Source of the DNA: an uncultured Gammaproteobacteria bacterium
GTDB lineage: Bacteria; Patescibacteriota; Microgenomatia; Levybacterales; UBA12049
Assembly: GCA_965230895.1 (NCBI GenBank)
Contig: OZ246394.1
Span: 1,121,887-1,185,886, forward strand
Direction: 5' to 3'
Length of the DNA: 64,000 nucleotides
Made by a program: the position numbers and the translations under genes. Shown here in pieces: positions 9,586 through 49,738 of this stretch (position 1 is its first letter; each line of letters opens with the position of its first letter). The notes under the pieces were generated by a model. It was given only the letters and a program-made list of their open reading frames with translations. It did not search any database and had not been told where the DNA came from.

Positions 9586-9689
9586 ATATTTTTTTTAGAA
9601 TTTAATCTAGATGTGTATAATACCCTATAAAGTCGTTTTTGACAATAGGCAATAGCTCATCTTTGATGAGTCTATTGAGTATTATACCA

Positions 9690-25642: not shown

Positions 25643-25852
25643 AGTGTTTTAAAAATAAAATCTCTCAATTCATTTATTGAGAGTAAATGTATGATACTAC
25701 AAAAAACGTGCCCCGTCAATAGGTTATTGTAAGAAAAACAGACTAAAACTCATGTATTTTGTTACTTTCCGTTGTTTTAGTATATTTATATTAAGGTATA
25801 TATAAGATATATATGCTTGACATTAGATTTTTTAAAGTGCAACAATAAAGAT

Positions 25853-28144: not shown

Positions 28145-28186
28145 TCGAGCTTGACAAACTCTCCGCAATATTGACAAAATAGCTCT

Positions 28187-30731: not shown

Positions 30732-30786
30732 ATATGTATTATACCTCACTCTTCCAGAAACTCTTTTTTTACTCTATACTTAAGCT

Positions 30787-34768: not shown

Positions 34769-35506
34769 ATGACTGAAGCATTGAAAAGACAACCGTACAC
34801 TCTTGATGCGTTTGAACAAATGACTGTGGACAATTTTCGACGAGCTGAAGGAGAGATCACAGATTGGAAGCTTTATTATGCAGAAAGGTTGACTGACGAA
34901 ACCAAAGAATTTGGATTCCAACACGGACCTGGTTTATTGCTGTTGTCACCCGCTTATATGGTACCTGACTACGCTGTAGAAGATGAATCACTCCAGGAAG
35001 GTATGGCTGATGAACTTGGTGATAAGCTCTACTTCGCCGCTCATTTAGCTCGGCATATAGGTATTCCTTTGAAACGTATTGCAGCAAATGCACTAGGCAA
35101 ACATACTGATACACAATATACAGGCATAGAAACATTTTCAGACCTTCAAACAACAGTTATGGCAAACGCTCATAAAATTTCTATTCCCAATGAGCTTAGT
35201 TATGGAATGTTAAGCTTTATAAATGACGATCAGCCTCATATCGATGCACCCTTTACGAAAACAACTTTACAGGACAACCCACTTTTTGTCTTGATGCGGT
35301 TTACAAATAGACTTGTGGATTCTCTTGACCCGAGCACAAGAGATAGAGCGGCTGTTGAACCGACAGTAGATACCACAACTGCATTAGGTGATTATGTAAA
35401 TGCACTCACATATGTAGCCAAAGCCCGTCTTGGGAAAAATATTGAAGATATTGCACTTGCCACAAAAGCAAAATCTGAACACCGAAAGAAATACGGCAAA
35501 GTGTAA
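34769..35506 (+). CDS. MazG-like nucleoside triphosphate pyrophosphohydrolase domain protein (putative)
   Basis: ADELGDKLYFAAHLARHIGIPL resembles the MazG EExGDLLF..V.LAR..G motif; otherwise uncharacterised. Confidence 0.4.
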   Translation: MTEALKRQPYTLDAFEQMTVDNFRRAEGEITDWKLYYAERLTDETKEFGFQHGPGLLLLSPAYMVPDYAVEDESLQEGMADELGDKLYFAAHLARHIGIPLKRIAANALGKHTDTQYTGIETFSDLQTTVMANAHKISIPNELSYGMLSFINDDQPHIDAPFTKTTLQDNPLFVLMRFTNRLVDSLDPSTRDRAAVEPTVDTTTALGDYVNALTYVAKARLGKNIEDIALATKAKSEHRKKYGKV

Positions 35507-35595
35507 TTACCTCTTTTTTATTCCCTTTCAGCTTTGACTTTTTCTCGTAAAAGCCATACACTAAAATTAAGCCGTGTTGTATCAACGACGGCTTT

Positions 35596-36210
35596 GTGGC
35601 TATGGCTGAAAATACTGTCCCATCAATCAATTTGCTACCAAAGAAAGGTGAAAGCTTTTTAAACCAGTTTCTTAATTGGACACTGACAATTGGAAGACTT
35701 CTCATCATCATAGTTGAGTTCGTGGCATTAGGCACTTTTCTCTTTAGATTTGATCTTGATATGAAAATCGTTGATCTTAAAGACAAGATTGAAGCGCAAA
35801 GCTTTATTGTCGCTAACTTTCAAAAATCTGAGGCAAATTTCCGGGACATCCAAGACCGTTTGGAACTTATAAAGCGGTATGAACAGATTGGTGGAACAAC
35901 ATCAGGTATTTTTGCAGATATTACAAAGTTAGGAGCAGGAAAAGTCACATTCAAAGATCTTACTGTCGAACCTGAAAACGCAAAAATTGAAGCACAAGCA
36001 GGTTCCCCTGCTGCACTTATGGCTTTTGTGGCAGCATTAAAGCAGCACCCATCAGTAACAGGTGTCATTGTGGATAAAGTGCAAAACAGCGCTTCAACAT
36101 CCCTTGTCAGTGTAAGTATTACAGCAACGCTTAAGCCACAAGCTTTTGAAAAAGATGAATCATTAAATCCAAATGCGGGACAAGTGGCACCAATATTAGA
36201 GACTGAGTAA
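35596..36210 (+). CDS. PilN-like type IV pilus assembly protein
   Basis: N-terminal INLLP motif, then a single TM, then a periplasmic-type domain; about 200 aa. Confidence 0.55.
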   Translation: MAMAENTVPSINLLPKKGESFLNQFLNWTLTIGRLLIIIVEFVALGTFLFRFDLDMKIVDLKDKIEAQSFIVANFQKSEANFRDIQDRLELIKRYEQIGGTTSGIFADITKLGAGKVTFKDLTVEPENAKIEAQAGSPAALMAFVAALKQHPSVTGVIVDKVQNSASTSLVSVSITATLKPQAFEKDESLNPNAGQVAPILETE

Positions 36211-36212
36211 TT

Positions 36213-36833
36213 ATGAGACTGCCTAAAAGTTATTTTGAAAGTTTATCTGCGACAAAATATCGCGAATATTTAAAGCTTCTTCCAAATATGGAGAAGGAGC
36301 ATACACGTGCATTTGTAACAATTGCTTTGACATTTGCAGCGCTTTCATTCTTTGGTATTTTTGCAATTAATCCAACCTTAACAACGATTGCAGAACTACA
36401 AAAAGAATTAGAAGATAACCAAATGGTAGATCAACAATTATCAGCAAAAATAAATAATTTGAGTCTTCTGCAGCAGCAATACAACTTATTAGAATCTGAT
36501 CTTCCTGTGGTTTATGCAGCGATTCCAAAAACAGCAGATGCTCCACTTCTCAGTGCACAAATAGAGGCACTTGCTAGAAAACATAACGTTACGATTGAAA
36601 CCTACAGAATTGCAGAAGTACAACTCGCCTCAAATAAGCAAAAACTTACGAAAACCACTTCGTTTACCTTTACGCTTGAAGCAACTGGAACATATCAGAA
36701 CATGATTAATTTCTCGACAGCGCTTGCAGGTCTTAATAGAATAGTTACTGTAGAATCCATGAGTATAAGTAGAGATAGTAAAACAAATGAACTTATGCTT
36801 ACATTACGAGGCAGACAATATTTCAAACCATAA
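36213..36833 (+). CDS. PilO-like type IV pilus assembly protein
   Basis: TM helix plus coiled coil plus a C-terminal alpha/beta region; about 200 aa, translationally coupled to the PilN-like gene. Confidence 0.45.
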   Translation: MRLPKSYFESLSATKYREYLKLLPNMEKEHTRAFVTIALTFAALSFFGIFAINPTLTTIAELQKELEDNQMVDQQLSAKINNLSLLQQQYNLLESDLPVVYAAIPKTADAPLLSAQIEALARKHNVTIETYRIAEVQLASNKQKLTKTTSFTFTLEATGTYQNMINFSTALAGLNRIVTVESMSISRDSKTNELMLTLRGRQYFKP

Positions 36834-36836
36834 ACT

Positions 36837-37199
36837 ATGCGAGGAAAGAAACAACATAACCCACAAAAAGATATTTTATTTATTCTCGGATCATCGTTCG
36901 TAGTAGTCGTGGCATGGATTGGATTTAATCTTTACCATATATATATAACATCTACTGTTAGTGATGAGATACAAGTACAACTAACACCTATCAATCCAAC
37001 ATTTGATAAAGATTTAATCCGTGAACTTAAATCTCGAGAGAAAATAAATCCTGCATTTGATAAACAGCCAAGCGCATCAAGATCAGCTACTACCCCAACA
37101 GCTGAACCGACACCAGAAGCTTCAAATTCTGGGACTCTTGAGACATCATCACGATTTGCACCTGCCGACACGGAAATAGCGACAAGATCTGGACAATGA
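36837..37199 (+). CDS. Small membrane protein with Pro/Thr-rich tail
   Basis: One TM segment (ILFILGSSFVVVVAWIGF). Overlaps the next gene by 4 nt. Confidence 0.4.
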   Translation: MRGKKQHNPQKDILFILGSSFVVVVAWIGFNLYHIYITSTVSDEIQVQLTPINPTFDKDLIRELKSREKINPAFDKQPSASRSATTPTAEPTPEASNSGTLETSSRFAPADTEIATRSGQ

Positions 37200-38590
37200 T
37201 ATATAACACAAAAAGTCTTTTAAATAGAAAAGTTCCTGCTTACGCGGGGATCTTTGTCCTGCTAGTAACACTTGGCCTTACTGTTCTTTTAAGTGGAAAT
37301 ACCGTTCAATTTGTTAGTAAAGCAACTGTCGGTAGTGAGCCTAAGAATGTGCAAGTCAGTAATATTAGCGCGACATCATTTACAATATCGTACGAGACGG
37401 ACCAGACAGCGGTTAGTACTGTTGCCTATGGGAAAGATACGGCCCTAGGAGATGTTGCATTAGATGTTAGAGATGTACTGACGGGAACACCTGCAGAACA
37501 CAGGCTTCACTATGTAACTGTACAAAATCTTGAACCCGGTACAGCATACTACTATACAATTACATCTGGAGCTCAAGTATCTGACAATAATGGTGCTCCA
37601 TATGAGATACGTACTGCTACAAATGTTGCTACATCTCCACCAACAAATGGAACTATTTCAGGTTCGGTCGCACTTGAAGATGGAACATTTCCAAATGAAA
37701 GTATTGTATACATATCTACAGAGACATCTCAGCTTTTATCAGCACTCGTACAACCAAATGGAACATTTACAACTTCTCTTGCTCAACTACGGACAAAGGA
37801 TCTGACAGCATATTCACCCGTTTTAGAGAAAACACCAATAAAGATATCTGCAACGAATGCAGCACTTCAATCAGAGGTTTCAGTGCTAGGAGAACAAATA
37901 GCTGAAGTTCCTAAAATTATTCTTTCGAAGAATTATGATTTTACTTTGAGTGGAGATGAATTAACGGCGAGTGAATCTGGTTCTTCTGCTTCGCAATCAG
38001 CGGGATTCCCAATTTTTGATGAAGCAGTTTCAGTGAGTTCACCTACGATTACAACACCTGAAGATCAACAAGTATTTAAAGACGCACAACCGTTATTTAA
38101 AGGGCAAGCACTACCAAATACTGGAATTGAAATCGTAATAACTGCTGATAGTGAAATTGCAGCATCATTACAGAGTGACTCAACAGGCATGTGGGAATTT
38201 AGACCACCGGTTGCACTAAATCCTGGACAACATACGATTACGATTTCTTCAATTGATTCCAAAGGAGCTATGCAAGATGTATCTCGAGCATTTACCGTTA
38301 ATGCTTCTGGAGGACAATTTACTGAGCCTTCGGTCTCTCCTATCCAACCCACACAAGGTCCCCCTGTTACTCCAACAGTTGCAGCTCTCCCCTCTCCTAC
38401 TCCAACATTGGAGCCATCACCGACTGCAACACCAACAGCAATTCCATCACCTACAATTGATCCAAATGCGATTAGCCCAACAAGAGGACCGCTCTCCCCT
38501 ACTGGTAGCTATTCTACTGTTGCTGGAATAATCACAAGTGTACTTTTCTTAGCAGGTGGTGTTATACTATTCTTCACAATTGCTGTGTAA
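37196..38590 (+). CDS. Cell-surface protein with fibronectin-III-like domain, Pro/Thr-rich stalk and C-terminal TM anchor
   Basis: N-terminal signal/anchor, an FN3-like block (PKNVQVSNISATSFTISYETDQ...LEPGTAYYYTI), a PT-rich linker, and a C-terminal hydrophobic segment GIITSVLFLAGGVILFFTIAV. No canonical LPXTG was found. Confidence 0.45.
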   Translation: MIYNTKSLLNRKVPAYAGIFVLLVTLGLTVLLSGNTVQFVSKATVGSEPKNVQVSNISATSFTISYETDQTAVSTVAYGKDTALGDVALDVRDVLTGTPAEHRLHYVTVQNLEPGTAYYYTITSGAQVSDNNGAPYEIRTATNVATSPPTNGTISGSVALEDGTFPNESIVYISTETSQLLSALVQPNGTFTTSLAQLRTKDLTAYSPVLEKTPIKISATNAALQSEVSVLGEQIAEVPKIILSKNYDFTLSGDELTASESGSSASQSAGFPIFDEAVSVSSPTITTPEDQQVFKDAQPLFKGQALPNTGIEIVITADSEIAASLQSDSTGMWEFRPPVALNPGQHTITISSIDSKGAMQDVSRAFTVNASGGQFTEPSVSPIQPTQGPPVTPTVAALPSPTPTLEPSPTATPTAIPSPTIDPNAISPTRGPLSPTGSYSTVAGIITSVLFLAGGVILFFTIAV

Positions 38591-38625: not shown

Positions 38626-39909
38626 ATGAATATCGCAATCGTTGGTGCAGGATTTACAGGACTTTCAGCAGCCTATCAGCTTGCAAAAAAAGGACATTCC
38701 GTTACTATTTTTGAAAAAGACACACAACCAGGTGGACTGGCAATTGGATATAAAGAAAAAAATTGGGATTGGACAGTTGAGAAACACTACCACCATTGGT
38801 TTACCAATGATAATTTCGTACTCGATTTAGCCAAAGATATTAATTATAACGTTCTTATCAAAACTCCAAAATCATCTTTCTTTATTGATAATGCTCCATA
38901 TAAATTTGATACACCAGCAGCAATTCTTTCTTTTCCAAAACTTCCCATGGTAGATAAAGTACGTATGGCAGCTGTATTCGCTTTCCTCTTTAGACTAAAC
39001 CCTTTCTGGAAAAGTTTGGAAGGATACAAAGTTTCCGAATTTGTACCAAAACTTATCGGGAAAAAAGCTTACGAGCTCCTGTGGAAACCACAGCTTGTAA
39101 ATAAAATGGGCCAACATGCTGACAAGATATCACTTGTTTGGTTCTGGGCAAGAGTTAAAAAGAGAACAACTTCTCTTGCATACCCTGAAGGTGGCTTTCT
39201 GCCATTTGCACAAGCAGTTGTTACAGCAATTGAGAAAAATGGTGGAAAAGTGAAATTCAACCAAGAAGTTGTAGAAATATCTGAAAAGAAAAATCTCATA
39301 ACAGTATCCTATCGAGGTGTTAATAAAAGAAAAAAAACTGAAACATTTGATAAAGTTATTTTTACGCTCCCCTCATTCCTTTTTCTTAAGACTACTCCAC
39401 AATTACCTCAAAAATATAAAAAGTCTTTAGTACGTTTACAAGGATTGAGCGCAACAAATATGCTTCTCCGATTAAAGAAACCTTTTTTTAAAGATAGTAC
39501 ATACTGGATGAGTATATGCGAACAAGATGCGCCAATTATGGCTATCATTGAGCACACAAACTTTATGGATAAGAAGCATTTTGACAATGAACATCTTGTT
39601 TATGTCGGCAATTACGCTTTTACTGATAACAAACTGGAGATTACGAAAGAGAAGTTACTACCAATGTATGATGCCTATTTGAAAAAAATTAATCCAGAAT
39701 ATCGAAAAAATTTAATTGGATACGAACTTTTCAAAGCTCCATTTGCACAACCAATCGTACCAACTAATTATTCCAAAATGATTCCTCAAATGAAAACACC
39801 TCTTAACAATGTTATTCTCGCAAATATCGAGCAAGTCTATCCTTGGGATCGCGGAACTAACTATGCAGTAGAGCTTGGTGAAAAAGCTGCTGATATGATA
39901 ACAGAATAG
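38626..39909 (+). CDS. FAD-dependent oxidoreductase, UDP-galactopyranose-mutase-like (putative)
   Basis: N-terminal Rossmann motif IAIVGAGFTGLSAAYQL...IFEK. The block VEKHYHHWFTNDNFVLD resembles Glf H-x-YG-x-H-I-FHTND. Confidence 0.45.
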   Translation: MNIAIVGAGFTGLSAAYQLAKKGHSVTIFEKDTQPGGLAIGYKEKNWDWTVEKHYHHWFTNDNFVLDLAKDINYNVLIKTPKSSFFIDNAPYKFDTPAAILSFPKLPMVDKVRMAAVFAFLFRLNPFWKSLEGYKVSEFVPKLIGKKAYELLWKPQLVNKMGQHADKISLVWFWARVKKRTTSLAYPEGGFLPFAQAVVTAIEKNGGKVKFNQEVVEISEKKNLITVSYRGVNKRKKTETFDKVIFTLPSFLFLKTTPQLPQKYKKSLVRLQGLSATNMLLRLKKPFFKDSTYWMSICEQDAPIMAIIEHTNFMDKKHFDNEHLVYVGNYAFTDNKLEITKEKLLPMYDAYLKKINPEYRKNLIGYELFKAPFAQPIVPTNYSKMIPQMKTPLNNVILANIEQVYPWDRGTNYAVELGEKAADMITE

Positions 39910-39945
39910 CTCCATTCAGAATATTTTCAGATATAATAAAAGGAT

Positions 39946-41613
39946 ATGCATCTGATCCTTAAGAATAAATATACGTATTTCGTTTCTATACTCACTATTT
40001 TAGGCTTTTTTCTCCATTTTTATAATCTTAATTGGGGTGCTCCATATTATTTTCATCCTGATGAAAGAAATGTCGCAAGTGCAATATCGCAACTTCGATT
40101 CCCCGAACAATTAAATCCTAATTTTTTTGCATACGGTTCGTTTCCTATTTATGTTGTTTTCTTCACGGGGCTTCTTTTTAATACAATTACAAATAATCCA
40201 CTCCATGGGCAAATTCCTTTTGATCAAGCGATCATTATCGGGAGGATGTATTCTGCGATTTTCGCAACAGCGCTTATACCATTGCTTTATATTTTGGGTA
40301 CAAAACTTCATGATAAACGGACTGGCGTAATTGCGGCAACATTTACCACATTAAGTACAGGATTTATCCAATTTGCACATTTCGGAACATTTGAGCTTTG
40401 GCTTACATTCTTTACTACCGTTCTCTTCTGGTTATGTCTAAAACTTTTAGAAAGAAAAACCATCAGGTACGTACTTCTTATTGGATTAGTTTGTGGGATA
40501 CTTGTTGCAACAAAAATTTCGCATCTTACTATTCTTCCGTTGCCACTTTTAGCATTAATAGCACTCCATATTAAAGGAAAGGGCAAGCATCATCACAAAT
40601 TCACTCGGCTATTGTTCTTTGTCCAAGAACTTGCACTTTTAGGAATTACTACTTTACTCATTTATTTTGCAACCAATCCATATGTGCTACTTGATTTCAA
40701 TGCCTTTTTTGCAAGCATGAACTATGAATCAAGTGTTGGATTAAATACGCTTCCTGTATTTTATACTCAAGGATTTTACGAGACGATACCTGTCTTTTAT
40801 CAATTTCTTAATATTTATCCATTCCTCCTTAACCCGATTATGACTATTCTTTTTGTCTTTACTTTTATATTCATCCTTGTCTGGGCAATTCGTTACAAAA
40901 ATTTACAGTATCTTTTGCTGCTGGGATTTTTCATTATTCTTTTTGTTTCTCAATCTTTTCTTTTTATTAAATGGGCTCGGTATATGATACCAACACTCCC
41001 CTTTCTCTATCTCATTATTGCCTTAACACTTTCGCATGTGCTTTTCAGGAAATCGTATGTTGCAAATGTCGCGAAGCATAGTCTAATGCGCGTAATAGTT
41101 ATTTCAATTTTTATTGTTAACACAATTTTTTCTCTTTCTTATTTTGTGACAGCCTTCGTCCAACCGGATACAAGAATCTCAGCTGCCACTTTTTCACGTC
41201 AGGCAATCCCCGCTACTGCAGCTGTTTTGACTGAAACATATGATATTGGAATAACACCTTTCAATAGTATCTTTACAAAGATAGTTATTTTTAACACCTA
41301 TGATCTTGATAGTGACTCACTTGAATATAACGAGACAACTTTGAATGAAATTGCAAAAAATTCAGATTATATAATCATCCCAAGTCAACGCGTACTGCAA
41401 ACACGTATCAATAACCCACAGCGTTACCCTATTGGCAATAAATTTTATAGTTCGTTAATGCATGGCAAATTCGGATATACCAAGGTTTATGAGACACCAT
41501 GTGACACAATCTGTAAAATTGCCTACTTAGGGGATCCTATCTATCACTTTGAACAGACGATTAATGTCTTTGACCGTCCAACTGTATTTATTTTCAAGAA
41601 TAATACTAAATAA
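39946..41613 (+). CDS. GT-C fold glycosyltransferase (family 39/83-like, polyprenyl-phosphate-sugar dependent), paralog 1
   Basis: More than 10 TM segments. An N-terminal loop carries the FHPDERNV motif (a DE in the first loop is typical of PMT/ArnT-like GT-C enzymes). It is homologous to the next gene. Confidence 0.6.
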   Translation: MHLILKNKYTYFVSILTILGFFLHFYNLNWGAPYYFHPDERNVASAISQLRFPEQLNPNFFAYGSFPIYVVFFTGLLFNTITNNPLHGQIPFDQAIIIGRMYSAIFATALIPLLYILGTKLHDKRTGVIAATFTTLSTGFIQFAHFGTFELWLTFFTTVLFWLCLKLLERKTIRYVLLIGLVCGILVATKISHLTILPLPLLALIALHIKGKGKHHHKFTRLLFFVQELALLGITTLLIYFATNPYVLLDFNAFFASMNYESSVGLNTLPVFYTQGFYETIPVFYQFLNIYPFLLNPIMTILFVFTFIFILVWAIRYKNLQYLLLLGFFIILFVSQSFLFIKWARYMIPTLPFLYLIIALTLSHVLFRKSYVANVAKHSLMRVIVISIFIVNTIFSLSYFVTAFVQPDTRISAATFSRQAIPATAAVLTETYDIGITPFNSIFTKIVIFNTYDLDSDSLEYNETTLNEIAKNSDYIIIPSQRVLQTRINNPQRYPIGNKFYSSLMHGKFGYTKVYETPCDTICKIAYLGDPIYHFEQTINVFDRPTVFIFKNNTK

Positions 41614-41615
41614 AA

Positions 41616-43310
41616 ATGTACAATAAACATATGTTGAAACAAAACTTACTTGCAAAAATTATCCTTCTTGGGATCGTACTCTTAGGTGGATTTTTGAGAT
41701 TTTATGATTTTGACTGGGATCAAGGACAACATCTCCATCCAGATGAAAGATTCTTAACAATGGTCGGGACCTCTATGATTATGCCAATTTCGTTTGCAGA
41801 TTATATGAATCCCGATACCTCGACGTTCAATCCCGCAAATATTGGTCATTCATTTTATGTTTATGGGACATTGCCAGTTGTCCTCACTAAGCTTATCGCA
41901 ATAAATCTAGGCTATGACAATTATGGGGATATCACGATTCTTGGACGATTATTTTCGGGCTTCGTAGATATACTGACAATTATTGTTATATATAAAATTA
42001 CTTCTTTACTTCAAAAACGGCATAAACTCCATCCGCATATCAAATATTGGGCTTCCTTTTTCTATGCCATTACTGTTTTACCGATACAACTCTCTCATTA
42101 TTTTGCAGTGGATACATTCCTCAATTTCTTTATGATAACTGCATTTTATCTTATGTTGCGTTTTAGTTATACAAAAAACCTAGCATTTGTAGCAGTAAGC
42201 GCAATTTTCTTTGGACTGGCTATTGGTTCAAAAATAAGTGCAATTTATATAGCGCCCCTGTTAGCATTCTTCTTAGTTAAAACATATATTCCCCATTTCC
42301 CAGTCCATAAAAAAGCTATTATCCACATCCTCTTATCTGGTTTCATTTTCAGTTTTACTGCATATTTAATTGGAAGATTAGCAGATCCTTACCTTTTTCA
42401 AACCGGAAATATTTTTGATCCGACAATAAGCAAACTCTTTCTTGATAACATCGATGCTTTAAAAAATTGGGGAAGCGCTGATGCATGGTTTCCACCAAGT
42501 GTCCAATGGATAAATAAAATACCAATTGTGTATCCACTGATAAATCTTGTACTTCTTGGCATAGGTGTTGGATATACGATTTTTCTTATCTGGGGTGCTA
42601 TCCAATTATTCAGGAGATATACTCATATTGATTTTATAGCAATTTTTTCTTGGACCCTATTCTTTTTTCTTTATCAAGGATTACAGTTTTCAACTACAAT
42701 GCGTTACTTCTTGCCACTCTATCCATTCTTAGCGTTGCTTGCTGCAATCGGTTTTTATGAACTTACGAAACATCGATCCAATGTCATTAGATTTATGTGC
42801 ATCATTTCTGTTGTACTTTGGACAATGTTTTTCTTTTCAATATATACTCTGCCACATACACGAAATACCGCAAGTATATGGATTTACGATCATATTCCAA
42901 ATGGACGTACACTGCTCAGTGAACATTGGGATGATAGCCTACCACTAGGTACAAATCCTCCATCACAAAAAACATATACACTTGAACAGCTTCCTGTATT
43001 TGATCCAGATACATCAGAAAAGTGGCAAAAAATGGATGAACTATTGGACAGGGGTGACTATCTAATACTCTCTTCAAATCGTGGTTGGGGCAGTATACCA
43101 ACAGTACCTGACAGATATCCTCAAACAACAAAGTACTACAAAGATTTATTAGGAGGAAATTCAAAGTATAAAAAAGTTGCAGAGTTTACATCCTATCCGT
43201 CACTTAACTATCTGGGTATTCCAATAAGTATTCCCGATGATTGGGCGGAGGAAGCTTTTACTGTCTATGATCATCCTAAAGTTATGATCTTTGAGAATAC
43301 AGAAAAATAA
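41616..43310 (+). CDS. GT-C fold glycosyltransferase, paralog 2
   Basis: LHPDERFLTMVG motif in the first loop, and the same multi-TM architecture. Confidence 0.6.
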   Translation: MYNKHMLKQNLLAKIILLGIVLLGGFLRFYDFDWDQGQHLHPDERFLTMVGTSMIMPISFADYMNPDTSTFNPANIGHSFYVYGTLPVVLTKLIAINLGYDNYGDITILGRLFSGFVDILTIIVIYKITSLLQKRHKLHPHIKYWASFFYAITVLPIQLSHYFAVDTFLNFFMITAFYLMLRFSYTKNLAFVAVSAIFFGLAIGSKISAIYIAPLLAFFLVKTYIPHFPVHKKAIIHILLSGFIFSFTAYLIGRLADPYLFQTGNIFDPTISKLFLDNIDALKNWGSADAWFPPSVQWINKIPIVYPLINLVLLGIGVGYTIFLIWGAIQLFRRYTHIDFIAIFSWTLFFFLYQGLQFSTTMRYFLPLYPFLALLAAIGFYELTKHRSNVIRFMCIISVVLWTMFFFSIYTLPHTRNTASIWIYDHIPNGRTLLSEHWDDSLPLGTNPPSQKTYTLEQLPVFDPDTSEKWQKMDELLDRGDYLILSSNRGWGSIPTVPDRYPQTTKYYKDLLGGNSKYKKVAEFTSYPSLNYLGIPISIPDDWAEEAFTVYDHPKVMIFENTEK

Positions 43311-43311
43311 C

Positions 43312-44445
43312 TTATTGTAAGATTGATTGATATGCTTCTAAAACTTTTTGTGTTGAATATATCTTATGCAGAGCTTCTTTACTTTTAATATAACTTTTTT
43401 TGTATTTAATAACTTGCACTAACTTGTCAGCAAAATCTTTCGAATTTTTCATTTTGGCAACCTCTCCCATTCCTGTCTGCTGGACAATTGTCCGAACTCC
43501 AGGAAGATTTGAAGAAACCACAGGGGTACCACAATACATTGCTTCAACCTGAACCATACCAAAGACTTCTGTCGGATTTATACTTGGTAATACAAGCACA
43601 TCAAGCATGCTATAAAACGCACCAAGTTCTGAATCTTTTAGTTCTCCAATAGTAATTATGTGATCTTTATACTTATTTAAATACCCTTGTATTCTCTTCT
43701 GATACGCCCTCTCTCCTACAACCTGTTCAGGTCCAGCAAGAACGATTGCAAATGGTTTATTAAGTAACGCTTGAATCCTCGGTATTGCTTCAAATACATA
43801 TTCAATCCCCTTTTCGGAGGCCAGTCTGCCAACGAAGCCAATATATTTTTTCTGTAAATCCGGAAACCGTTGTTGAAGACTTTGTTTTGAAGAAGATAAG
43901 ATTTTAGGTTCCAAAATAACTGGAGGAATAATATGTATAGGCTTTGTAATACTGCGTAATGTCTTTGAAAAGTTCTTATAATCTTTTGTTAATGTTATGA
44001 CATCATTTGATAATGAAAGCGAGAGATTATTGCTCCATTGAAGCATCCGAACAACAATGTTGTTGGTTAAACTTCCACTCATAGTGACATCACAGATATA
44101 AATACTGTGAACTTTTTTTCTTAATAACTTCGCAATAAGCGCAACTATGCATCCTTCAAATTGGGGTAAGTTAATAAGCACATGATCTGACGATTTCACT
44201 TCTTTATATACTGCATACCACCAGCCTGGCATCAAGAACCCCTTACTTAATCTGAGAATGAATGGAACACGAAATACTTGAACATGATTAATTGTTTCTT
44301 CACGCGGTAAAGATTTTTTATGTTGTGCTGTAATGACATGAACAACGTACCCATTTTTGGCTAAAAGCTCGGCTACATTTTTTATAGAATTGGTAAGCCC
44401 ACTGATATGTGGTGCATAATAAGCTGCACTGATAAGAATTTTCAT
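43312..44445 (-). CDS. Glycosyltransferase family 4 (GT-B)
   Basis: The C-terminal half carries the GT4 E-x7-E region (EVFGMVQVEAMYCGTPVV). The start is placed at the internal ATG at 44445. Confidence 0.7.
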   Translation of the reverse strand: MKILISAAYYAPHISGLTNSIKNVAELLAKNGYVVHVITAQHKKSLPREETINHVQVFRVPFILRLSKGFLMPGWWYAVYKEVKSSDHVLINLPQFEGCIVALIAKLLRKKVHSIYICDVTMSGSLTNNIVVRMLQWSNNLSLSLSNDVITLTKDYKNFSKTLRSITKPIHIIPPVILEPKILSSSKQSLQQRFPDLQKKYIGFVGRLASEKGIEYVFEAIPRIQALLNKPFAIVLAGPEQVVGERAYQKRIQGYLNKYKDHIITIGELKDSELGAFYSMLDVLVLPSINPTEVFGMVQVEAMYCGTPVVSSNLPGVRTIVQQTGMGEVAKMKNSKDFADKLVQVIKYKKSYIKSKEALHKIYSTQKVLEAYQSILQ

Positions 44446-44501
44446 AAAAACCGCTTTTGCAAAGCAATACTGAGTGTTATACAATACATTATACTACTAG
44501 T

Positions 44502-45059
44502 ATGAAGATAGGATTTGACTTAGACCGAGTTTTTATTAACACTCCACCATTTGTTCCTGGCAAAATTATTACTAAACTTTATAAAAAGAAGGATAATGGT
44601 GTCTTACTTTACAGAATACCTTCCCATTCAGAACAGCTCTTCCGGAAAGCAACGCATCACCCGCTTCTGCGCCCACCTATTGAAGAGAATTTAACTGTTT
44701 TGAGAAGTATTGCAAATAAAAATAATAAACTATACCTCATATCCAGTCGTTATAAATTCCTTGAAGACATCACAGGAAAACTTGTGAAGAGACACGGTCT
44801 TGATGACATTTTTGAAAAGCTTTACTTCAACTATGATAACAAACAACCTCACATATTTAAAAATGATATTCTCAAAAAACTAAAGCTTGATATGTATATT
44901 GATGATGATCTCTCATTGCTCCAATTTGTCGCCAAAGAAAATCCGAAGACTAAATTTTATTGGCTTGAAACTGATGAGAAGGATAGCGCCTTGGCTCATC
45001 ATAAAAAGTTAGAAAAAAATGTCTTCCCTATATCCAATTTATCCACTATACTAAGCTAA
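44502..45059 (+). CDS. HAD-superfamily hydrolase (phosphatase/5-prime-nucleotidase-like)
   Basis: Motif I is IGFDLDRV, motif II is LISS, and a K...DMYIDDD motif III/IV is present. The start is placed at the ATG at 44502. Confidence 0.55.
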   Translation: MKIGFDLDRVFINTPPFVPGKIITKLYKKKDNGVLLYRIPSHSEQLFRKATHHPLLRPPIEENLTVLRSIANKNNKLYLISSRYKFLEDITGKLVKRHGLDDIFEKLYFNYDNKQPHIFKNDILKKLKLDMYIDDDLSLLQFVAKENPKTKFYWLETDEKDSALAHHKKLEKNVFPISNLSTILS

Positions 45060-45060
45060 T

Positions 45061-47337
45061 ATGTTACCGTCAGATATTTATGCAGTATTGCAATGGTGGT
45101 CTATAATTCTTCTTATTGGAGTTGGCTTTCTTCCACTCACATTCCTTCTCTTCGACAAATTTTTTGATAAGGGATATATTTTTGCAAAACTTATTGGACT
45201 TATCCTCATAGGGTATTTCATTTTCGTACTAGGTGTTTTTAGAATTTTGCCATTCACGACTATTAGTATCTTCGTCGCCTTTTTTATACTAGTTATTGCC
45301 CAGATAGTTCTTCTTCCCAAAAAGTGGCGAATACTTTTCGTCCTTAAGAAATTTTGGCCAGTCTTTATCATCGAAGAAGTCCTATTTTTAACAATACTTT
45401 TCATCTGGGCATATATTCATTCTTTCGCCCCAGATATCCATGGATTAGAAAAGTATATGGACTTTGGCTTTATTAATTCGTTCTTGAGATCAGATTATTT
45501 ACCAGCCAAAGACATGTGGTTTACTCCATTTACTATTAATTACTATTACTTTGGACATTTACTGACAGCAATGTTGACAAAGATGTCAGGACTTTCATCT
45601 TCAATTACATTTAATCTTATGCTTTCAACCATCGTCGCTTTTTGCTTTGTCCAGACATTTTCAATCGGAGCAAATCTTTATGTGCACTTAACCCAAAATC
45701 CGAAAATCGCAAAATTAAAACTCGCAGTCGCTGGTTTTTTAAGCGCAGCACTTGTCACATTCGCTGGTAATCTTCATATTTTCTATGCGTTCTTTAAACC
45801 ATATAAAGCCGATGCTCCTGTACCATTCTGGCAATTACAATTTAGTCCGGCGGACTTCCCAAACTCATACTGGTATCCAAATGCTACTCGTTTTATTTAT
45901 AACACTATTCATGAATTCCCTATTTACTCCTGGGTTGTTGCCGATCTGCACGGACATGTATTAGATATTCCATTTGTTCTCTTAACAATAGGTTTACTCT
46001 TGGCACTTGTTTTGAATAGCACGACAAAGAATCCTGATGAAGAGCCAAAACTTAATAATACATTCCAAGTGCATCCTCTGTTCCTTATATTTACAGGTCT
46101 TCTCCTAGCTTGTATGTATATGACCAATGCTTGGGATGGGGCGATCTATTTATTACTTGTAGGATTAGTTCTCCTTTATGTTCATGGTACAAAAGCAGAA
46201 CTTTATAAAAAGGCATTTGATACAGAAGAAAAACCGGTAGTGGAAGTTCTGAAAAAAGCGAGTGATTCTGGCAAGAAAATAAGACGTTTTCAAGAATGGC
46301 AGTTTGCACTCGGTCGAGATTTTGTACTCGCTTTTCTGGTAGTTTTGGCTTCATTCTTTGCTTTCACAACACCATACAATATTAATTTTGATCCATTTGT
46401 CTCAGGAATTGGAGTTCTTTGTGCTCCTGAATTCCTAACTAATTTACAAAAGGTTGGACCTTTCCTTTTTGAAGCAAATCATTGCCAAAAATCATATCCT
46501 TGGCAATTATTTACTCTTTATGGTTTCTTCTACTTCTTTGTTGTTATTTTCGCAATTGCAATATTACGAGCAAAGGAGCATAAAGCTACAGATATTTTTG
46601 TATTAATGCTAGTTATACTCTCTACATTCCTCATTATTATTCCAGAATTTTTCTATGTAAAAGATATTTATCCTGCTCACTATCGAGCAAACACTATGTT
46701 TAAACTTGTCTTCCAAGCATTTATTATGCTCGGTTTAAGTAGTGCGTATATCATCGTCCGTTCTTTTGTACTTATGCAGTTTTCAAATCTTAGCGCGCTT
46801 AAAAGGTTAGGAATGATTTTATATCTATTTACGACAATCACTCTCGTCTACTTTGTACTTACTTATCCATACCTTGCAGTAAAAGCATATTATGGAGATT
46901 TCAAAAACTATCAAGGGCTCAATGGCATCGCTTATTTGCAAAAATTATATCCGGCAGATTATGACGCAATTGCTTGGCTTAACGAAAATGTAAAAGGACA
47001 ACCGGTTATTCTTGAAGCACAAGGAGACTCATATACTGATTTTGGAAGAGTATCAACAAATACAGGATTGCCGACGGTTCTTGGATGGACGGTCCATGAA
47101 TGGTTATGGCGCGGATCATATGATATCCCTTCACCAAGAATTGAAGAGGTAAAGACGTTATATGAAACAGGTGATATAAATGTTACAAAGAACCTTATTA
47201 AAAAATATAATATTCAATATGTTTTCATCGGGAATATGGAATTCCAGAAACATCCAAATCTCGACGCAGATAAATTTAACCAATTAGGAAAAGTTGTCTT
47301 CCAAAAAGAGAATACAAGAATCTATAAATTGAATTAG
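45061..47337 (+). CDS. DUF2298 / chlor_Arch_YYY-family polytopic membrane protein (putative GT-C-like glycosyltransferase)
   Basis: 758 aa, highly hydrophobic, with the hallmark NYYYFGH motif. Confidence 0.6.
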   Translation: MLPSDIYAVLQWWSIILLIGVGFLPLTFLLFDKFFDKGYIFAKLIGLILIGYFIFVLGVFRILPFTTISIFVAFFILVIAQIVLLPKKWRILFVLKKFWPVFIIEEVLFLTILFIWAYIHSFAPDIHGLEKYMDFGFINSFLRSDYLPAKDMWFTPFTINYYYFGHLLTAMLTKMSGLSSSITFNLMLSTIVAFCFVQTFSIGANLYVHLTQNPKIAKLKLAVAGFLSAALVTFAGNLHIFYAFFKPYKADAPVPFWQLQFSPADFPNSYWYPNATRFIYNTIHEFPIYSWVVADLHGHVLDIPFVLLTIGLLLALVLNSTTKNPDEEPKLNNTFQVHPLFLIFTGLLLACMYMTNAWDGAIYLLLVGLVLLYVHGTKAELYKKAFDTEEKPVVEVLKKASDSGKKIRRFQEWQFALGRDFVLAFLVVLASFFAFTTPYNINFDPFVSGIGVLCAPEFLTNLQKVGPFLFEANHCQKSYPWQLFTLYGFFYFFVVIFAIAILRAKEHKATDIFVLMLVILSTFLIIIPEFFYVKDIYPAHYRANTMFKLVFQAFIMLGLSSAYIIVRSFVLMQFSNLSALKRLGMILYLFTTITLVYFVLTYPYLAVKAYYGDFKNYQGLNGIAYLQKLYPADYDAIAWLNENVKGQPVILEAQGDSYTDFGRVSTNTGLPTVLGWTVHEWLWRGSYDIPSPRIEEVKTLYETGDINVTKNLIKKYNIQYVFIGNMEFQKHPNLDADKFNQLGKVVFQKENTRIYKLN

Positions 47338-47348
47338 TTATTTGAAAT

Positions 47349-47840
47349 TCAAGGTTGATTATTTACTAATGAAAATCCTTTCATAATTGCTTGTATCTCA
47401 GCATCATTTCCAGCTTTCTTTGTACTCACTACTTTTGTTTGAATTTCTTCCTTGGAAAACCAACCAAACTGAGAGTGGTCTTCTGGATGCAACTGGATCA
47501 TTTCGAAAGAATCTACAAACTGCGCAAAATAAATAACCTCGATAGAATGAGAACCTTTCACTTCATTCATGTATGTAAAAACTGCAAAGGGATTTCCTAC
47601 TGTAATTTCCATATTGAACTCTTCTCTAATTTCACGTTTTAATCCCTCTACAATATCTTCTCCGAAATCTATATGTCCACCAGGTAATTCGTAAACATCT
47701 GGAAGGAATTTTTTGGTAGCAGCTCTTTTTGGCAGAAATAGTTTTGTTGTATTTTCGAAGGTTGCATGAATGAAAGCGCAGGCTGTTATAACTTGCTGCC
47801 CTTGAGCAGGAATCTCGCTATCATGTTTTACTTCTGCCAT
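47349..47840 (-). CDS. NUDIX hydrolase
   Basis: Nudix box GGHIDFGEDIVEGLKREIREEFNMEI. Confidence 0.8.
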   Translation of the reverse strand: MAEVKHDSEIPAQGQQVITACAFIHATFENTTKLFLPKRAATKKFLPDVYELPGGHIDFGEDIVEGLKREIREEFNMEITVGNPFAVFTYMNEVKGSHSIEVIYFAQFVDSFEMIQLHPEDHSQFGWFSKEEIQTKVVSTKKAGNDAEIQAIMKGFSLVNNQP

Positions 47841-47841
47841 A

Positions 47842-49047
47842 TTAATTCTTTGAAGTCTTTGTGGGTTTTGCTGTTGGAATTGGTGTTGGTGTTAAAATAC
47901 CAAATTCCCCAACTTTACAATCAATTCCTTTTATTTGGCAGGCAATATACTCTTGTATCTCACCATATTCACCATTCCCCGCTCTTGGAGAAAGAACCCA
48001 TTGGTTTTTGTACTCCGGACTTATTGGAGGGTTTAACAAAAGTCCATACCGATCCTCTGACTGGTCCCCTGTGTCTATAATCGCACTCTTTATTCTGGCA
48101 CCTTCCATCTTCTTAGCCAGCTTAATAAAATCATCATATTCATCTTCAGAAATATCTGTTTTTATACTGTCCTGCAATGTTGTCATAAGGCCAACAAGCT
48201 TAACTGGATTAAGGAATGTATCGACTGAAAGGATCCGGTCCTTAAACGCTGCGATTACTTTTTCTTGCCTCTTAGAGCGTGCAAAATCAGAGCCTTCCTT
48301 TCCAGTTCCGTGACGAGAACGGACATATTTTAGCGCAGTTTCTCCACTCATTTTTTGTTTACCTTTATCAAAATGGAGATGCTCGTATCTGCATGGAAAT
48401 GCATCGACTTCTGATGCGCTTCCTGACGCAATTTCGGCTGATAAACTTGCAATCCGATCTTCAGTGAGTCCGCACGCATCCGCCTCCATGCCAGAGATCG
48501 GATATTGATAGTCATCAAATGTATTATCCACTTCAAGCTCCAATCCTCCGACCATGTCTACCATTTTTTCAAACCCTCCAAAGTCTATCTTTACAGCATA
48601 GTCAATTGGTTGGTTCAACATATTTCCAACAAGAGCTTTTGTCGCCTTTAGACCGTTCCCTTCTTCTTTCTGTTCAGCAAACGTATATGTTGTATTAATC
48701 TTTGCTCCTAAATCAGGTACCCATGTATCTCGAGGAATTGAAACAAGTGTGACACGTTTGGTATTTGGATCTATATTTGCGTAAATGATTGTGTCAGTTA
48801 AATCAGGCCCATCATGATTACCTCCACCAACACCTAAAAGCAATAGATTTACTTTCTGATCTGGAGAACTAGCTTTTTTCAGTTGAATTTCCTGCTTAAA
48901 TATGAGTTCCCATAAGACAGGTATATATTTACCGGCCTTCACAAGCCCTATCCCAAGTAAAACCGCAAGAAAAACCAGTAGAGCAATTTTTACTCTACTT
49001 CTAACAGGTTTTCTCCGTCGTGAACGTAAAGGTGTGTGATGGTCCAT
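47842..49047 (-). CDS. LytR-CpsA-Psr (LCP) family cell-wall glycopolymer phosphotransferase
   Basis: N-terminal TM helix, and an LCP domain with LLLGVGGGNHDGPDLTDTIIYANIDP...IPRDTWV. Confidence 0.8.
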   Translation of the reverse strand: MDHHTPLRSRRRKPVRSRVKIALLVFLAVLLGIGLVKAGKYIPVLWELIFKQEIQLKKASSPDQKVNLLLLGVGGGNHDGPDLTDTIIYANIDPNTKRVTLVSIPRDTWVPDLGAKINTTYTFAEQKEEGNGLKATKALVGNMLNQPIDYAVKIDFGGFEKMVDMVGGLELEVDNTFDDYQYPISGMEADACGLTEDRIASLSAEIASGSASEVDAFPCRYEHLHFDKGKQKMSGETALKYVRSRHGTGKEGSDFARSKRQEKVIAAFKDRILSVDTFLNPVKLVGLMTTLQDSIKTDISEDEYDDFIKLAKKMEGARIKSAIIDTGDQSEDRYGLLLNPPISPEYKNQWVLSPRAGNGEYGEIQEYIACQIKGIDCKVGEFGILTPTPIPTAKPTKTSKN

Positions 49048-49072
49048 GAATTAAACAATAATTGATGATGAA

Positions 49073-49738
49073 TTAAGCATTCTCTATAAGTTTAACGAAT
49101 TTATCCGCGTCGAGACTCGCGCCTCCGACAAGGGCGCCGTCAATTGATGGAGATTGCGTAAAGTCATGAATATTTTCGGGAGTAACACTCCCACCATAGA
49201 GAACGAATTCCACTTGAGGATTTTTCTCTTTTATCGTTTTAACTACTTTTTCTGCGTTTTCTGGAGTATCTGGATGTCCAGAGCCGATTGCAAAAATAGG
49301 TTCATATGCTACAAGCGTTACTCCTTCTGGAATAGGAGTATTTTCATCTTGCACGCAAAATATTGGTGTTAGATTACTCTTCAATGCCATTGCTACCTTC
49401 TTCGCCAAAAGTTCATCATCTTCATTAAAAAGCTTTCTGCGTTCTGAATGGCCAATAATTGCATAATCAGCGAATTCTTTTATTTCTTCAGCTGTGACCT
49501 CTCCTGTATATGCGCCTTCGTCAAAAGGAGATACATCCTCGCTTCCAAATGAAACAGGAAGGATAACTTCATTCGAATATGATTTTAATAACGGTAATAA
49601 GGTATAGGGGGCACAAACAACAGCAACTTTATTTTCATGCTTTTCTAAACCTGCATTTGCTAAATGTTGCAGCCAATCATTTGTATCTTGAGTCGTTTTA
49701 TTTGACTTCCAATTAGCGATGATAAAGAGTTTCTTCAT
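49073..49738 (-). CDS. tpiA: Triosephosphate isomerase
   Basis: ANWKSN, IGHSERR and AYEPIFAIGSG motifs. Confidence 0.92.
   Translation of the reverse strand: MKKLFIIANWKSNKTTQDTNDWLQHLANAGLEKHENKVAVVCAPYTLLPLLKSYSNEVILPVSFGSEDVSPFDEGAYTGEVTAEEIKEFADYAIIGHSERRKLFNEDDELLAKKVAMALKSNLTPIFCVQDENTPIPEGVTLVAYEPIFAIGSGHPDTPENAEKVVKTIKEKNPQVEFVLYGGSVTPENIHDFTQSPSIDGALVGGASLDADKFVKLIENA

Follow-up and report, generated by a model that had tools for sequence, protein, structure and literature searches.

Described pathways of extracytoplasmic glycosylation follow a scheme in which a sugar is attached to polyprenyl phosphate in the cytoplasm, the product is flipped across the membrane, and glycosyltransferases (GTs) of the GT-C type use it on the outer face (PMC11127046, PMC12041528). 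In Caldicellulosiruptor bescii, a 556-aa enzyme of family GT39 is encoded near cellulases with Pro/Thr linkers and its deletion abolishes their glycosylation (PMC6151902), and the Pgf operon of Streptococcus mutans combines genes for a GT-A enzyme and an epimerase with those for two GT-C enzymes, whose substrates it also encodes (PMC12041528). Substrate genes are found near transferase genes in Caldicellulosiruptor as well as in streptococci (PMC6151902, PMC12041528). A further relative is Agl23 (TIGR03663), a haloarchaeal PMT-like protein for which flippase activity has been reported (PMC11182771). Here we analyse positions 38626-49047 of a 64-kb window (the whole stretch of 64,000 nucleotides, from contig OZ246394.1 of assembly GCA_965230895.1), which encode a protein of the DUF2298 family (TIGR03662, or YYY) together with a flavoenzyme of the PRK07233 family and two GT-C enzymes. 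According to their TIGRFAMs description, TIGR03663 genes often adjoin TIGR03662 (YYY) genes; TIGR03662 itself was defined on proteins from Chloroflexi, Archaea and Clostridium phytofermentans. We found almost no open literature on DUF2298, and searches for DUF2298, PRK07233 and TIGR03662 returned nothing relevant and no report of a flavoenzyme partnership or fusion.

We tentatively read the region, with somewhat less than even confidence, as one version of a conserved module for extracytoplasmic glycosylation that depends on polyprenyl-phosphate sugars and whose likeliest acceptor is the stalk of ig464, an Ig-like membrane protein encoded just upstream. The core of the module would be the DUF2298/YYY protein and a dedicated soluble PRK07233 flavoenzyme (flav), which are joined in this lineage by two ArnT/PMT-like GT-C paralogs (gtc1 and gtc2). 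We place the flavoenzyme, the PMT_2-type enzymes and DUF2298 in one pathway because they are neighbours across phyla, are translationally coupled and, in one genome, occur as a gene fusion. Our reading builds on gene content, family and fold assignments, motifs, this cross-phylum linkage and the fusion, from which we infer what serves as donor and as acceptor, which reaction the flavoenzyme catalyses and what activity each enzyme has.

A sequence-only reading of the same interval had proposed nine contiguous genes for a lipid-linked, cell-wall-attached glycopolymer. We assigned the genes, among the 66 open reading frames (ORFs) of the window, with Pfam and NCBIfam hidden Markov models (HMMs), BLASTP, AlphaFold models, Foldseek searches against the PDB, hhalign and comparisons of family profiles with PDB sequences. 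The genes concerned are the following:

37196-38590, plus strand: ig464, Ig-like membrane protein, 464 aa, outside the interval of the sequence-only reading
38626-39909, plus strand: flav, flavoenzyme, 427 aa (PRK07233, PF01593)
39946-41613, plus strand: gtc1, GT-C paralog 1, 555 aa, PMT_2-type
41616-43310, plus strand: gtc2, GT-C paralog 2, 564 aa, PMT_2-type
43312-44445, minus strand: GT4, 377 aa from ATG (Glycos_transf_1, Glyco_transf_4)
44502-45059, plus strand: HAD-like small soluble protein, 185 aa, with HAD motifs
45061-47337, plus strand: YYY/DUF2298 protein, 758 aa (PF10060, TIGR03662)
47349-47840, minus strand: Nudix hydrolase, 163 aa (PF00293)
47842-49047, minus strand: LCP protein, 401 aa (PF03816, TIGR00350)
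52500-53534: FemAB-family protein, beyond the interval but nearby

Eight genes, rather than nine, occupy 38626-49047, and as the intergenic gaps measure 1-56 nt there is no ninth. The two GT-C enzymes, the YYY protein, the GT4 and the LCP protein lie where they had been placed, as does the FemAB-family gene expected near 52.5 kb, whereas the label Glf given to the flavoenzyme does not stand (see below). Each gene of the interval has hundreds to thousands of homologues, so these are not chance ORFs.

The window belongs to the genome of an uncultured Candidatus Levybacteria bacterium (Microgenomates, Patescibacteria), and its exact proteins also occur on metagenome contigs. A genome scan with the DUF2298 alignment returned Levybacteria-type loci only, the 80 best being nearly all from metagenome-assembled genomes (MAGs) of Levybacteria/Patescibacteria or from MAGs mislabelled 'Gammaproteobacteria'; the contexts outside the candidate phyla radiation (CPR) are a small sample of seven hand-picked loci, to which representatives of protein clusters and a further search for homologues led. 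In Candidatus Rifleibacterium the order is gtc2, gtc1, flav and YYY, with overlapping stop and start codons, followed by a GT2, a GT4, a methyltransferase and a short-chain dehydrogenase/reductase (SDR). Orthologues there include gtc1 (E 3e-52, with the motif FHPDEMN), gtc2 (E 2e-83) and the GT4 (E 5.5e-68), the last of which also has an orthologue in locus L093. Two Clostridia MAGs (L089 and L094) carry YYY beside an operon of GT2, LPG_synthase_TM (flippase-like) and flavoenzyme genes, with a phosphohexomutase and a sugar-1-phosphate nucleotidyltransferase alongside. On a Phycisphaerae contig the flavoenzyme and YYY genes overlap by 4 nt and nothing else related is close by. The fusion is found in a deltaproteobacterium (L091, GCA_016932595.1), where a true Glf (PF03275), a GT2, the fusion and a second DUF2298 gene follow one another; its 1601 residues, encoded at 5203-10008 on the plus strand, join a complete gtc2-type enzyme with HLHPDERF (residues 14-756, E 4.5e-108) to a complete DUF2298 protein (residues 823-1577, E 1.5e-71). 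A Firmicute-like contig (L088) has a GT2 gene overlapping that of a 1008-aa DUF2298 protein and lacks the flavoenzyme. GT2 enzymes of 235-325 aa adjoin DUF2298 in four of the non-Levybacteria contexts, in keeping with the described scheme of a lipid-linked donor. As had been suggested, genomic context is informative for DUF2298. As a separate observation, the set of genes in the two Clostridia MAGs is a compact candidate for biochemical reconstitution.

YYY belongs to its family without reservation (PF10060, E 2e-93, 314 bits; TIGR03662, Chlor_Arch_YYY, E 1e-151, 506.7 bits against a cut-off of 300.25) and carries NYYYFGH at residues 160-166, in agreement with the sequence-only reading. The family is large: when clustered at 50% identity, its members at E<=1e-3 yield 6708 representatives. 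In the AlphaFold model (pLDDT 73, pTM 0.78) the helices are confident and the conserved loops poor. All Foldseek matches of this model in the PDB at E<=1e-3 are GT-C enzymes, namely the C-mannosyltransferase DPY19 (1.3e-5), PglB (2.6e-4 and 4.3e-4) and AftA (4.5e-4), and the C-terminal soluble domain resembles the C-terminal globular domain of AglB (Foldseek E 0.04, TMt 0.52). From these Foldseek matches, which are the sole basis of the fold assignment, DUF2298/YYY is plausibly a third GT-C-fold glycosyltransferase with a predicted C-terminal extracytoplasmic domain. In hhalign, YYY and gtc2 are linked weakly through their C-terminal halves (E 2.5e-4, probability 43%), a sequence similarity which suggests that the three membrane enzymes gtc1, gtc2 and YYY are distant relatives.

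Across an alignment of ten DUF2298 proteins from at least five phyla, the invariant residues include E130, K131, D134, D151, N160-Y163, T282-I283-H284-E285, D295, H297, H299, N356, W358, D359 and W676...W683. They fall in the conserved stretches E130-K131-x-M133-D134, D151-x-W-F, N-Y-Y-Y, T282-I-H-E285-F-P, D295-L-H-x-H299 and M-x-N-x-W-D359, and the C-terminal domain keeps G-W-x-x-H-E-x-L-W. The invariant T-I-H-E recalls the 'TIXE' loop motif of oligosaccharyltransferases (OSTs). An identity as an OST of family GT66 was considered and rejected: YYY has no PF02516 (STT3) match at E<=10, the DUF2298 profile matches no OST chain, and neither WWDYG nor, more loosely, WWDxG is among the invariant residues.

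The sequence-only reading had described two tandem GT-C paralogs with an acidic motif in the first loop, and this description holds. gtc1 and gtc2 share 25% identity from end to end (E 7e-37 in BLASTP) and narrowly pass the PMT_2 gathering cut-off of 26.1 bits, with 28.6 and 29.0 bits, respectively. After the first transmembrane (TM) helix gtc1 has YFHPDERNV at residues 35-43 (HPDER at 37-41) and gtc2 has HLHPDERFL at residues 39-47 (HPDER at 41-45). Among 38 homologues each, D39 and E40 of gtc1 and P42, D43, E44 and R45 of gtc2 are invariant, so the acidic D-E pair, the lack of which had been named as evidence against GT-C enzymes, is present throughout. Profiles of the same 38 homologues matched, among PDB sequences, yeast Pmt2 (E 2.3e-4) and STT3 (E 4e-4) in the case of gtc2, and STT3A (E 1.4e-3) and ArnT (E 2.2e-3) in the case of gtc1; no unrelated, non-GT-C protein matched either profile at comparable E-values. 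The P-D-E-x-R of both proteins would be similar to the first-loop motif of Escherichia coli ArnT, which we take to be QPDETRY. The loop after the first helix of gtc2 is acidic (76 residues, nine Asp/Glu and two Lys/Arg), which fits a location outside the membrane; as the prediction of TM segments gave overlapping segments, it was used just for loop charge and gross topology. Both proteins end in a conserved soluble domain of ~150 aa.

Two narrower assignments of gtc1 and gtc2 were rejected. As GT39 PMTs they lack both PF02366 and MIR, with no match even at E<=10 (some orthologues elsewhere match PF02366 weakly), and as members of Agl23/TIGR03663 they fail by score, gtc1 reaching 16.5 bits against a cut-off of 126.25 and gtc2 giving no match. 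Neither matches an ArnT equivalog in NCBIfam.

Judged by HMMs and by its predicted structure, the flavoenzyme is a soluble FAD enzyme of the PRK07233 family with the fold of amine oxidases, protoporphyrinogen oxidase (PPO) and phytoene desaturase. It matches PF01593 (Amino_oxidase) over its full length (residues 10-423, E 2e-23, 83.8 bits against a cut-off of 19.8), scores 381.4 bits against the NCBIfam model PRK07233 ('hypothetical protein', cut-off 252), is predicted to be soluble and carries an N-terminal FAD motif of the GxGxxG type, VGAGFTG, at residues 6-12. The next NCBIfam matches are the HpnE and CrtI/CrtD models, far under their cut-offs. The AlphaFold model (35 homologues; pLDDT 87.8, pTM 0.88) finds among its top 50 Foldseek matches in the PDB the PPO structures 2ivd/2ive, a Methanosarcina oxidoreductase (3ka7), monoamine oxidases, L-amino acid oxidases and phytoene desaturase (5mog), with the best TM-score to phytoene desaturase (TMq 0.82).

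This grouping with amine and protoporphyrinogen oxidases, seen by HMM and fold alike, contradicts the proposal of a Glf-like enzyme, that is, a UDP-galactopyranose mutase (UGM). The flavoenzyme has no PF03275 (GLF) match at E<=0.01, and none of the top 50 structures found by Foldseek is a UGM. UGM chains of the PDB align to residues 3-64 alone, which hold the dinucleotide-binding motif (E 1e-3), and monoamine oxidases also align to residues 197-423; hhalign against the true Glf of L091 aligned 69 N-terminal columns and nothing beyond. We therefore rule out Glf on account of the missing PF03275, the membership of Amino_oxidase and PRK07233, and the fold neighbours. Since public sources call the protein 'protoporphyrinogen oxidase' and the sequence-only reading called it Glf, the assignment corrects a tempting mis-annotation. 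The protein is unusually conserved (60-85% identity among its 120 best homologues) and its motif E-[KR]-[FYH]-Y-H-H is kept across phyla; the exact motif 'HYHH' was dropped as a cross-phylum signature, being specific to Levybacteria.

Within the Levybacteria lineage, the order EF-G, PilN/O-like genes, Ig-like gene, flav, GT-C genes, HAD-like gene, YYY, LCP, triosephosphate isomerase (TIM, gene tim), PcrA and FemAB is kept in ~80 loci, and because the whole stretch keeps its order, adjacency within this lineage proves little. In 62 Levybacteria-type loci, the interval from flav to YYY spans between 1.6 and 8.8 kb, with 0-4 detectable GT-C copies and, in some loci, another YYY. Its 59 otherwise unlabelled accessory ORFs include 25 SDR epimerases, 3 methyltransferases, 3 GT87 enzymes, 2 more PMT_2 proteins, 1 GT2 and 1 UbiA, and about twenty accessory ORFs of membrane-protein size belong to no family; the interval behaves like a glycan-diversity island. 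The UbiA prenyltransferase gene (L066, 2496-3401, plus strand) directly follows flav and precedes two GT-C genes, an SDR, the HAD-like gene and YYY, an arrangement which by analogy recalls the decaprenyl-phosphoribose/arabinose route. Many of the MAGs whose DUF2298 loci show this gene order (L010, L012, L019, L022 and others) are titled 'uncultured Gammaproteobacteria bacterium', and others Acidiferrales, Sulfotelmatobacter or Limnocylindrales, apparently taxonomic mislabels.

The HAD-like gene is present in 45 of the 62 loci and lies directly 5' of YYY in all 45, usually with the SDR gene before it; in the window its stop codon is 1 nt ahead of the YYY start codon, and in L092 and L093 it is divergent yet still adjacent to YYY. 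The 185-aa protein is likely a HAD-like phosphatase, as judged from its motifs. The HAD phosphatase named in the sequence-only reading is supported to the extent that four HAD motifs occur in order and are invariant or nearly so in 36 homologues (D6-x-D8 in FDLDRV, S81/R83, K120 and D134-D135-D136), but no Pfam or NCBIfam model is matched above threshold. HAD models match the protein itself at E ~0.05, below threshold; of the 36 family members, 8 match Acid_phosphat_B (best E 4.7e-4) and 8 match HAD_2, all under the gathering cut-offs, and the family profile gave no match among PDB sequences. The cytoplasmic GT4 is present as described, with PF00534 (Glycos_transf_1, E 1.4e-32, 113 bits) and PF13439 (Glyco_transf_4, E 1.2e-8, 35.6 bits) both above cut-offs, although it reaches no NCBIfam equivalog. 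It is an accessory gene, found in 8 of the 62 loci, and takes the place of the SDR in the subclade of the window. The Nudix hydrolase (PF00293, E 1.3e-13), which had gone unmentioned, occurs at this position solely in the window's closest relatives (L001-L003 and L047) and is probably outside the module.

The LCP enzyme is confirmed by PF03816 (E 2.4e-34, 119 bits) and TIGR00350 (110 bits) and by its topology, in which one TM helix (residues 21-39) follows a basic N-terminal tail and the LCP domain lies behind this helix, outside the membrane. Its C-terminus is a short Pro/Thr-rich tail, TPTPIPTAKPTKTSKN. In 52 of the 54 loci of Levybacteria type LCP lies 3' of YYY, as it does in Shapirobacteria. 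It adjoins DUF2298 in CPR genomes alone; the contexts from Rifleibacterium, Clostridia, Phycisphaerae and the deltaproteobacterium have no LCP, and in CPR genomes EF-G, TIM, PcrA and FemAB are as syntenic as LCP. In the window the LCP gene forms with tim and nudix a tight minus-strand unit (47349-49738, with gaps of 25 nt from tim to LCP and 1 nt from LCP to nudix), in which the triosephosphate isomerase is a short one of 221 aa. The proposed ligation of a polymer to peptidoglycan by LCP thus has its gene, but the functional tie is weak, as the gene is on the opposite strand, in the tim-lcp-nudix unit, and linked to DUF2298 in CPR only; we consider its membership of the module doubtful.

The arrangement of the genes suggests four units: a plus-strand run from PilN/PilO-like genes through ig464 to flav, gtc1 and gtc2; the convergent GT4; the HAD-like gene with YYY; and tim-lcp-nudix on the minus strand. 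Scans of the window for promoters (57 sites against 53.7 expected) and terminators (10 against 9.9) were at chance level, and just one of the promoter-like sites between genes, that at 44457-44485 ahead of the HAD-like gene, is consistent with the gene map. The small plus-strand genes 5' of ig464 (34769-37199), syntenic in Levybacteria and Shapirobacteria, encode a 245-aa protein, a PilN-like protein of 204 aa whose L093 homologue matches PF05137, PilO (PF04350) and a membrane protein of 120 aa whose tail is rich in Ser, Thr and Pro. This run looks like a module related to type IV pili or to another kind of envelope assembly, and is possibly co-transcribed with the glycosylation genes. Farther upstream, EF-G is adjoined by a GH18 glycoside hydrolase (29652-30749, minus strand), a small ICMT/PEMT-like membrane methyltransferase (30787-31227, plus strand) and a PIG-L deacetylase (31208-32071, minus strand), of which the GH18 and PIG-L pair is found at the same place in the Levybacteria loci L005 and L006. 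Two large plus-strand ORFs at 25817-29635 (775 and 482 aa) have no Pfam match at E<=1e-3, and the sole match of a 1084-aa plus-strand ORF at 59022-62276 is a marginal one to GCS2 (glutamate-cysteine ligase family 2; E 2e-4, residues 95-266).

The protein ig464, which the sequence-only reading had missed, consists of an N-terminal signal anchor, fn3/Big_13 domains (Pfam matches to Big_13, fn3 and Pur_ac_phosph_N), a Pro/Thr/Ser-rich stalk of ~60 residues (~aa 381-440) and a C-terminal TM helix. It is the sole ORF among the 66 of the window with at least 55% Ser/Thr/Pro over 40 aa, and a stretch of this type is kept in 56 of 58 homologues. Its gene is co-directional with flav and ends 36 nt 5' of it (the two overlap by 4 nt in L005), and it is present upstream in 54 of the 62 related loci. 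In actinobacteria, too, substrate genes lie near transferase genes. Surface proteins are also seen elsewhere: the GT2-DUF2298 pair of L088 has nearby genes for a PT-rich surface protein and a sortase, and SLH and Big_5 surface proteins are encoded alongside the Clostridia module. With ig464 present, glycosylation of a protein is no less likely than synthesis of a polymer linked to peptidoglycan. As acceptor we favour, with rather less than even confidence, a surface protein modified by O-glycosylation over a wall polymer, which seems doubtful; we lean this way because the LCP gene is in another unit and linked in CPR only, while the ig464 stalk is encoded directly 5' of flav.

We propose that the cytoplasmic flavoenzyme and the HAD-like phosphatase, with the GT4 in this window or an SDR epimerase in most relatives, would make and tailor a polyprenyl-phosphate-linked sugar, which would then be flipped across the membrane. 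On the outer face, the three GT-C enzymes would transfer sugars by means of the acidic residues of their first outer loops to the Pro/Thr-rich stalk of the co-transcribed ig464, and perhaps to further surface proteins, in the manner of PMT/GT39 and Pgf-type O-glycosylation. The Clostridia locus holds in sequence a hexose phosphate mutase, a nucleotidyltransferase, a GT2, a flippase-like protein and DUF2298, and because the flavoenzyme sits inside the GT2 operon there, we place it on the donor side, acting on a nucleotide- or lipid-linked sugar. A candidate for its reaction, by analogy, is that of an oxidase which forms an epimerase pair with the SDR, as DprE1 does with DprE2 on a different fold. 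The true Glf at the equivalent place in L091 hints at another, a ring-contracting, Glf-like mutation of the sugar. Modification of the isoprenoid carrier, for which the resemblance to phytoene desaturase and HpnE might speak, is a less likely third.

Several observations weigh against this scheme. In none of its 64 kb does the window hold a gene for a GT2 polyprenyl-phosphate glycosyltransferase, a UbiA or a flippase, which leaves the pathway incomplete in cis, and the donor synthase and flippase must be elsewhere in the genome; of the lipid-linked pathway of the sequence-only reading, the GT-C, GT4 and LCP genes are present and these two parts are missing. For DUF2298, the TM-scores against GT-C structures are low, at 0.28-0.33 with an rmsd of 11-15 A, the pLDDT of the model falls under 50 in those loops that are of functional interest, and the family profile had zero matches among PDB sequences. 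No PT-rich neighbours are found at the Rifleibacterium, Clostridia and deltaproteobacterial loci, and as the stretch from EF-G to FemAB is syntenic in CPR, ig464, like LCP, could owe its position to an inherited gene order. Some loci have up to four or five GT-C enzymes, beyond the need of simple protein O-mannosylation, which fits polymer building too. Finally, the enzyme activities, the donor and the acceptor are all deduced from sequence and predicted structures.

In the alternative closest to the sequence-only reading, now without Glf, the GT-C enzymes would build a lipid-carried polysaccharide or a polymer like teichoic acid outside the membrane, in the manner of mycobacterial arabinogalactan or of the three-component pentofuranose systems, and the adjacent LCP would ligate it to peptidoglycan. 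The position of LCP 3' of YYY in Levybacteria-type loci and Shapirobacteria, the presence of AftA among the fold matches of DUF2298 and the several GT-C copies and GT87 enzymes per locus are in its favour; so is the combination of a HAD-like protein, an SDR (in L066 with a UbiA as well) and an FAD enzyme, which mirrors the UbiA/phosphatase/DprE1-DprE2/GT-C and PRP-UbiA/SDR/GT136 routes (PMC11127046). However, LCP is transcribed from the other strand together with triosephosphate isomerase, none of the non-CPR contexts examined has it, the CPR synteny equally takes in EF-G, PcrA and FemAB, and the window has no initiating phosphoglycosyltransferase, polymerase or exporter. We regard such a wall polymer as possible but clearly not likely. 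The same CPR synteny raises the question of whether the genes are mere neighbours in a compact genome and form no functional unit, as the order EF-G...PilO...TIM-PcrA-FemAB in ~80 loci and the chance-level promoter and terminator scans would allow. This is very improbable, since the flav-YYY, gtc-YYY and GT4 links recur in four other phyla in other orders and with other neighbours, once as a fusion, which largely refutes it for the core of flav, gtc1, gtc2 and YYY; LCP, Nudix and ig464 are excepted.

Two further alternatives concern the flavoenzyme and differ in what it would act on. It could be a functional analogue of Glf outside the Glf family, converting a nucleotide- or polyprenyl-phosphate-linked pyranose to the furanose that DUF2298 would then transfer. 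In L091 a true Glf and a GT2 occupy the place of the PRK07233 enzyme directly 5' of the two DUF2298 genes, in Clostridia the operon of the flavoenzyme also encodes a GT2 and a flippase-like protein, no other sugar-modifying enzyme being close by, and the E-K-H-Y-H-H-W-F-T of the flavoenzyme aligns weakly with the H-x-x-G-S-H-I-F-H-T of Glf (hhalign probability 28%). Against this stand the lack of a GLF domain, fold neighbours that are redox enzymes acting on hydrophobic or amine substrates, and support from a single genome context; moreover, we know of no mutase in this fold subfamily, and consider the idea quite unlikely. Alternatively, the flavoenzyme might saturate or desaturate the polyprenyl phosphate carrier to give a dolichol-like lipid preferred by DUF2298. 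The best TM-score, to phytoene desaturase (0.82), agrees with this, as does the fact that the closest named NCBIfam models after PRK07233, HpnE and CrtI/CrtD, all act on isoprenoids. These models score far under their family cut-offs, though, and for an enzyme that modifies the carrier in general, translational coupling to DUF2298 in particular would be surprising; we hold this to be improbable. A literature search for a CrtI-like polyprenol reductase gave nothing relevant.

Through the genomic contexts gathered here DUF2298, a large family without assigned function, becomes a testable system. A bolder proposal, which we regard as speculative, is that DUF2298 is an uncharacterised GT-C family with an obligatory PRK07233 partner that tailors the sugar donor, as a non-Glf mutase or as an oxidase in the role of DprE1, in a widespread pathway of surface glycosylation. 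If true, the DUF2298-PRK07233 pathway, in which the pair is at times fused or coupled to GT-C enzymes of the PMT_2 type, spans Patescibacteria, Riflebacteria, Clostridia, Planctomycetota and others. CPR bacteria live attached to other cells, and the glycans specified by this hypervariable locus likely matter for host recognition and phage sensitivity.

Compared with known systems, gtc1 and gtc2 are nearest to the PMT_2/ArnT type (PF13231; GT83 and bacterial GT39), with a length of ~555-565 aa near the 556 aa of Cbes_1864 (PMC6151902), multiple membrane spans, an acidic P-D-E-x-R in the first outer loop and profiles that match Pmt2, ArnT and STT3. Enzymes of this type are expected to use a polyprenyl-phosphate monosaccharide as donor. 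Unlike them, gtc1 and gtc2 have marginal scores and their own C-terminal domain of ~150 aa resembling that of DUF2298. The logic of lipid-phosphate sugar, flipping and GT-C transfer, with a HAD phosphatase and an SDR as auxiliaries, is shared with the Gtr (GtrA/GtrB/GtrX) and pentofuranose GT136 systems (PMC11127046), and the HAD-like protein and SDR of most relatives resemble the phosphoribose-phosphatase and epimerase helpers of the latter. A GT2 (once a UbiA) adjoins DUF2298 in relatives, whereas the window lacks GT2, UbiA and flippase; Gtr-type systems have one GT-C against three here, and no described one has a PRK07233 flavoenzyme.

The mycobacterial decaprenyl-phosphoarabinose route (UbiA Rv3806c, phosphatase Rv3807c, FAD oxidase DprE1, SDR DprE2, GT-C enzymes AftA/Emb, and Lcp1) has a similar cast. 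It shares with these loci an FAD enzyme, a phosphatase and, in most relatives, an SDR, besides several GT-C enzymes, with an AftA-like fold match among them, and a nearby LCP. It differs in that the phosphatase here is HAD-like and not PAP2, and UbiA is present in one of ~60 related loci. DprE1 is a vanillyl-alcohol-oxidase-type flavoprotein, whereas the flavoenzyme of the window has the amine-oxidase/PPO fold. The Pgf system of S. mutans (PgfS, PgfE, PgfM1/PgfM2 and adhesins; PMC12041528) likewise acts outside the cytoplasm and has two paralogous GT-C enzymes, an epimerase and Ser/Thr-rich substrates in the cluster, but its GT-C enzymes are of the YfhO family, not PMT_2 or DUF2298, and it lacks a flavoenzyme. 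To the GT66 enzymes STT3, PglB and AglB, DUF2298 is related by PglB as a top fold match and by its AglB-like C-terminal domain, in which the nearest to WWDYG is GWxVHEWLWRG. The pairing of a PMT-like protein with YYY is as in the Agl23/TIGR03663 family, of which gtc1 and gtc2 are not members by score. As a near-constant neighbour of DUF2298 across phyla, the PRK07233 flavoprotein has no counterpart in any described Gtr-, Pgf-, ArnT-type or pentofuranose system. The locus therefore belongs to a known kind, GT-C-dependent extracytoplasmic glycosylation, and its unusual parts are DUF2298, the PRK07233 partner and PMT_2-like enzymes with a C-terminal domain of their own.

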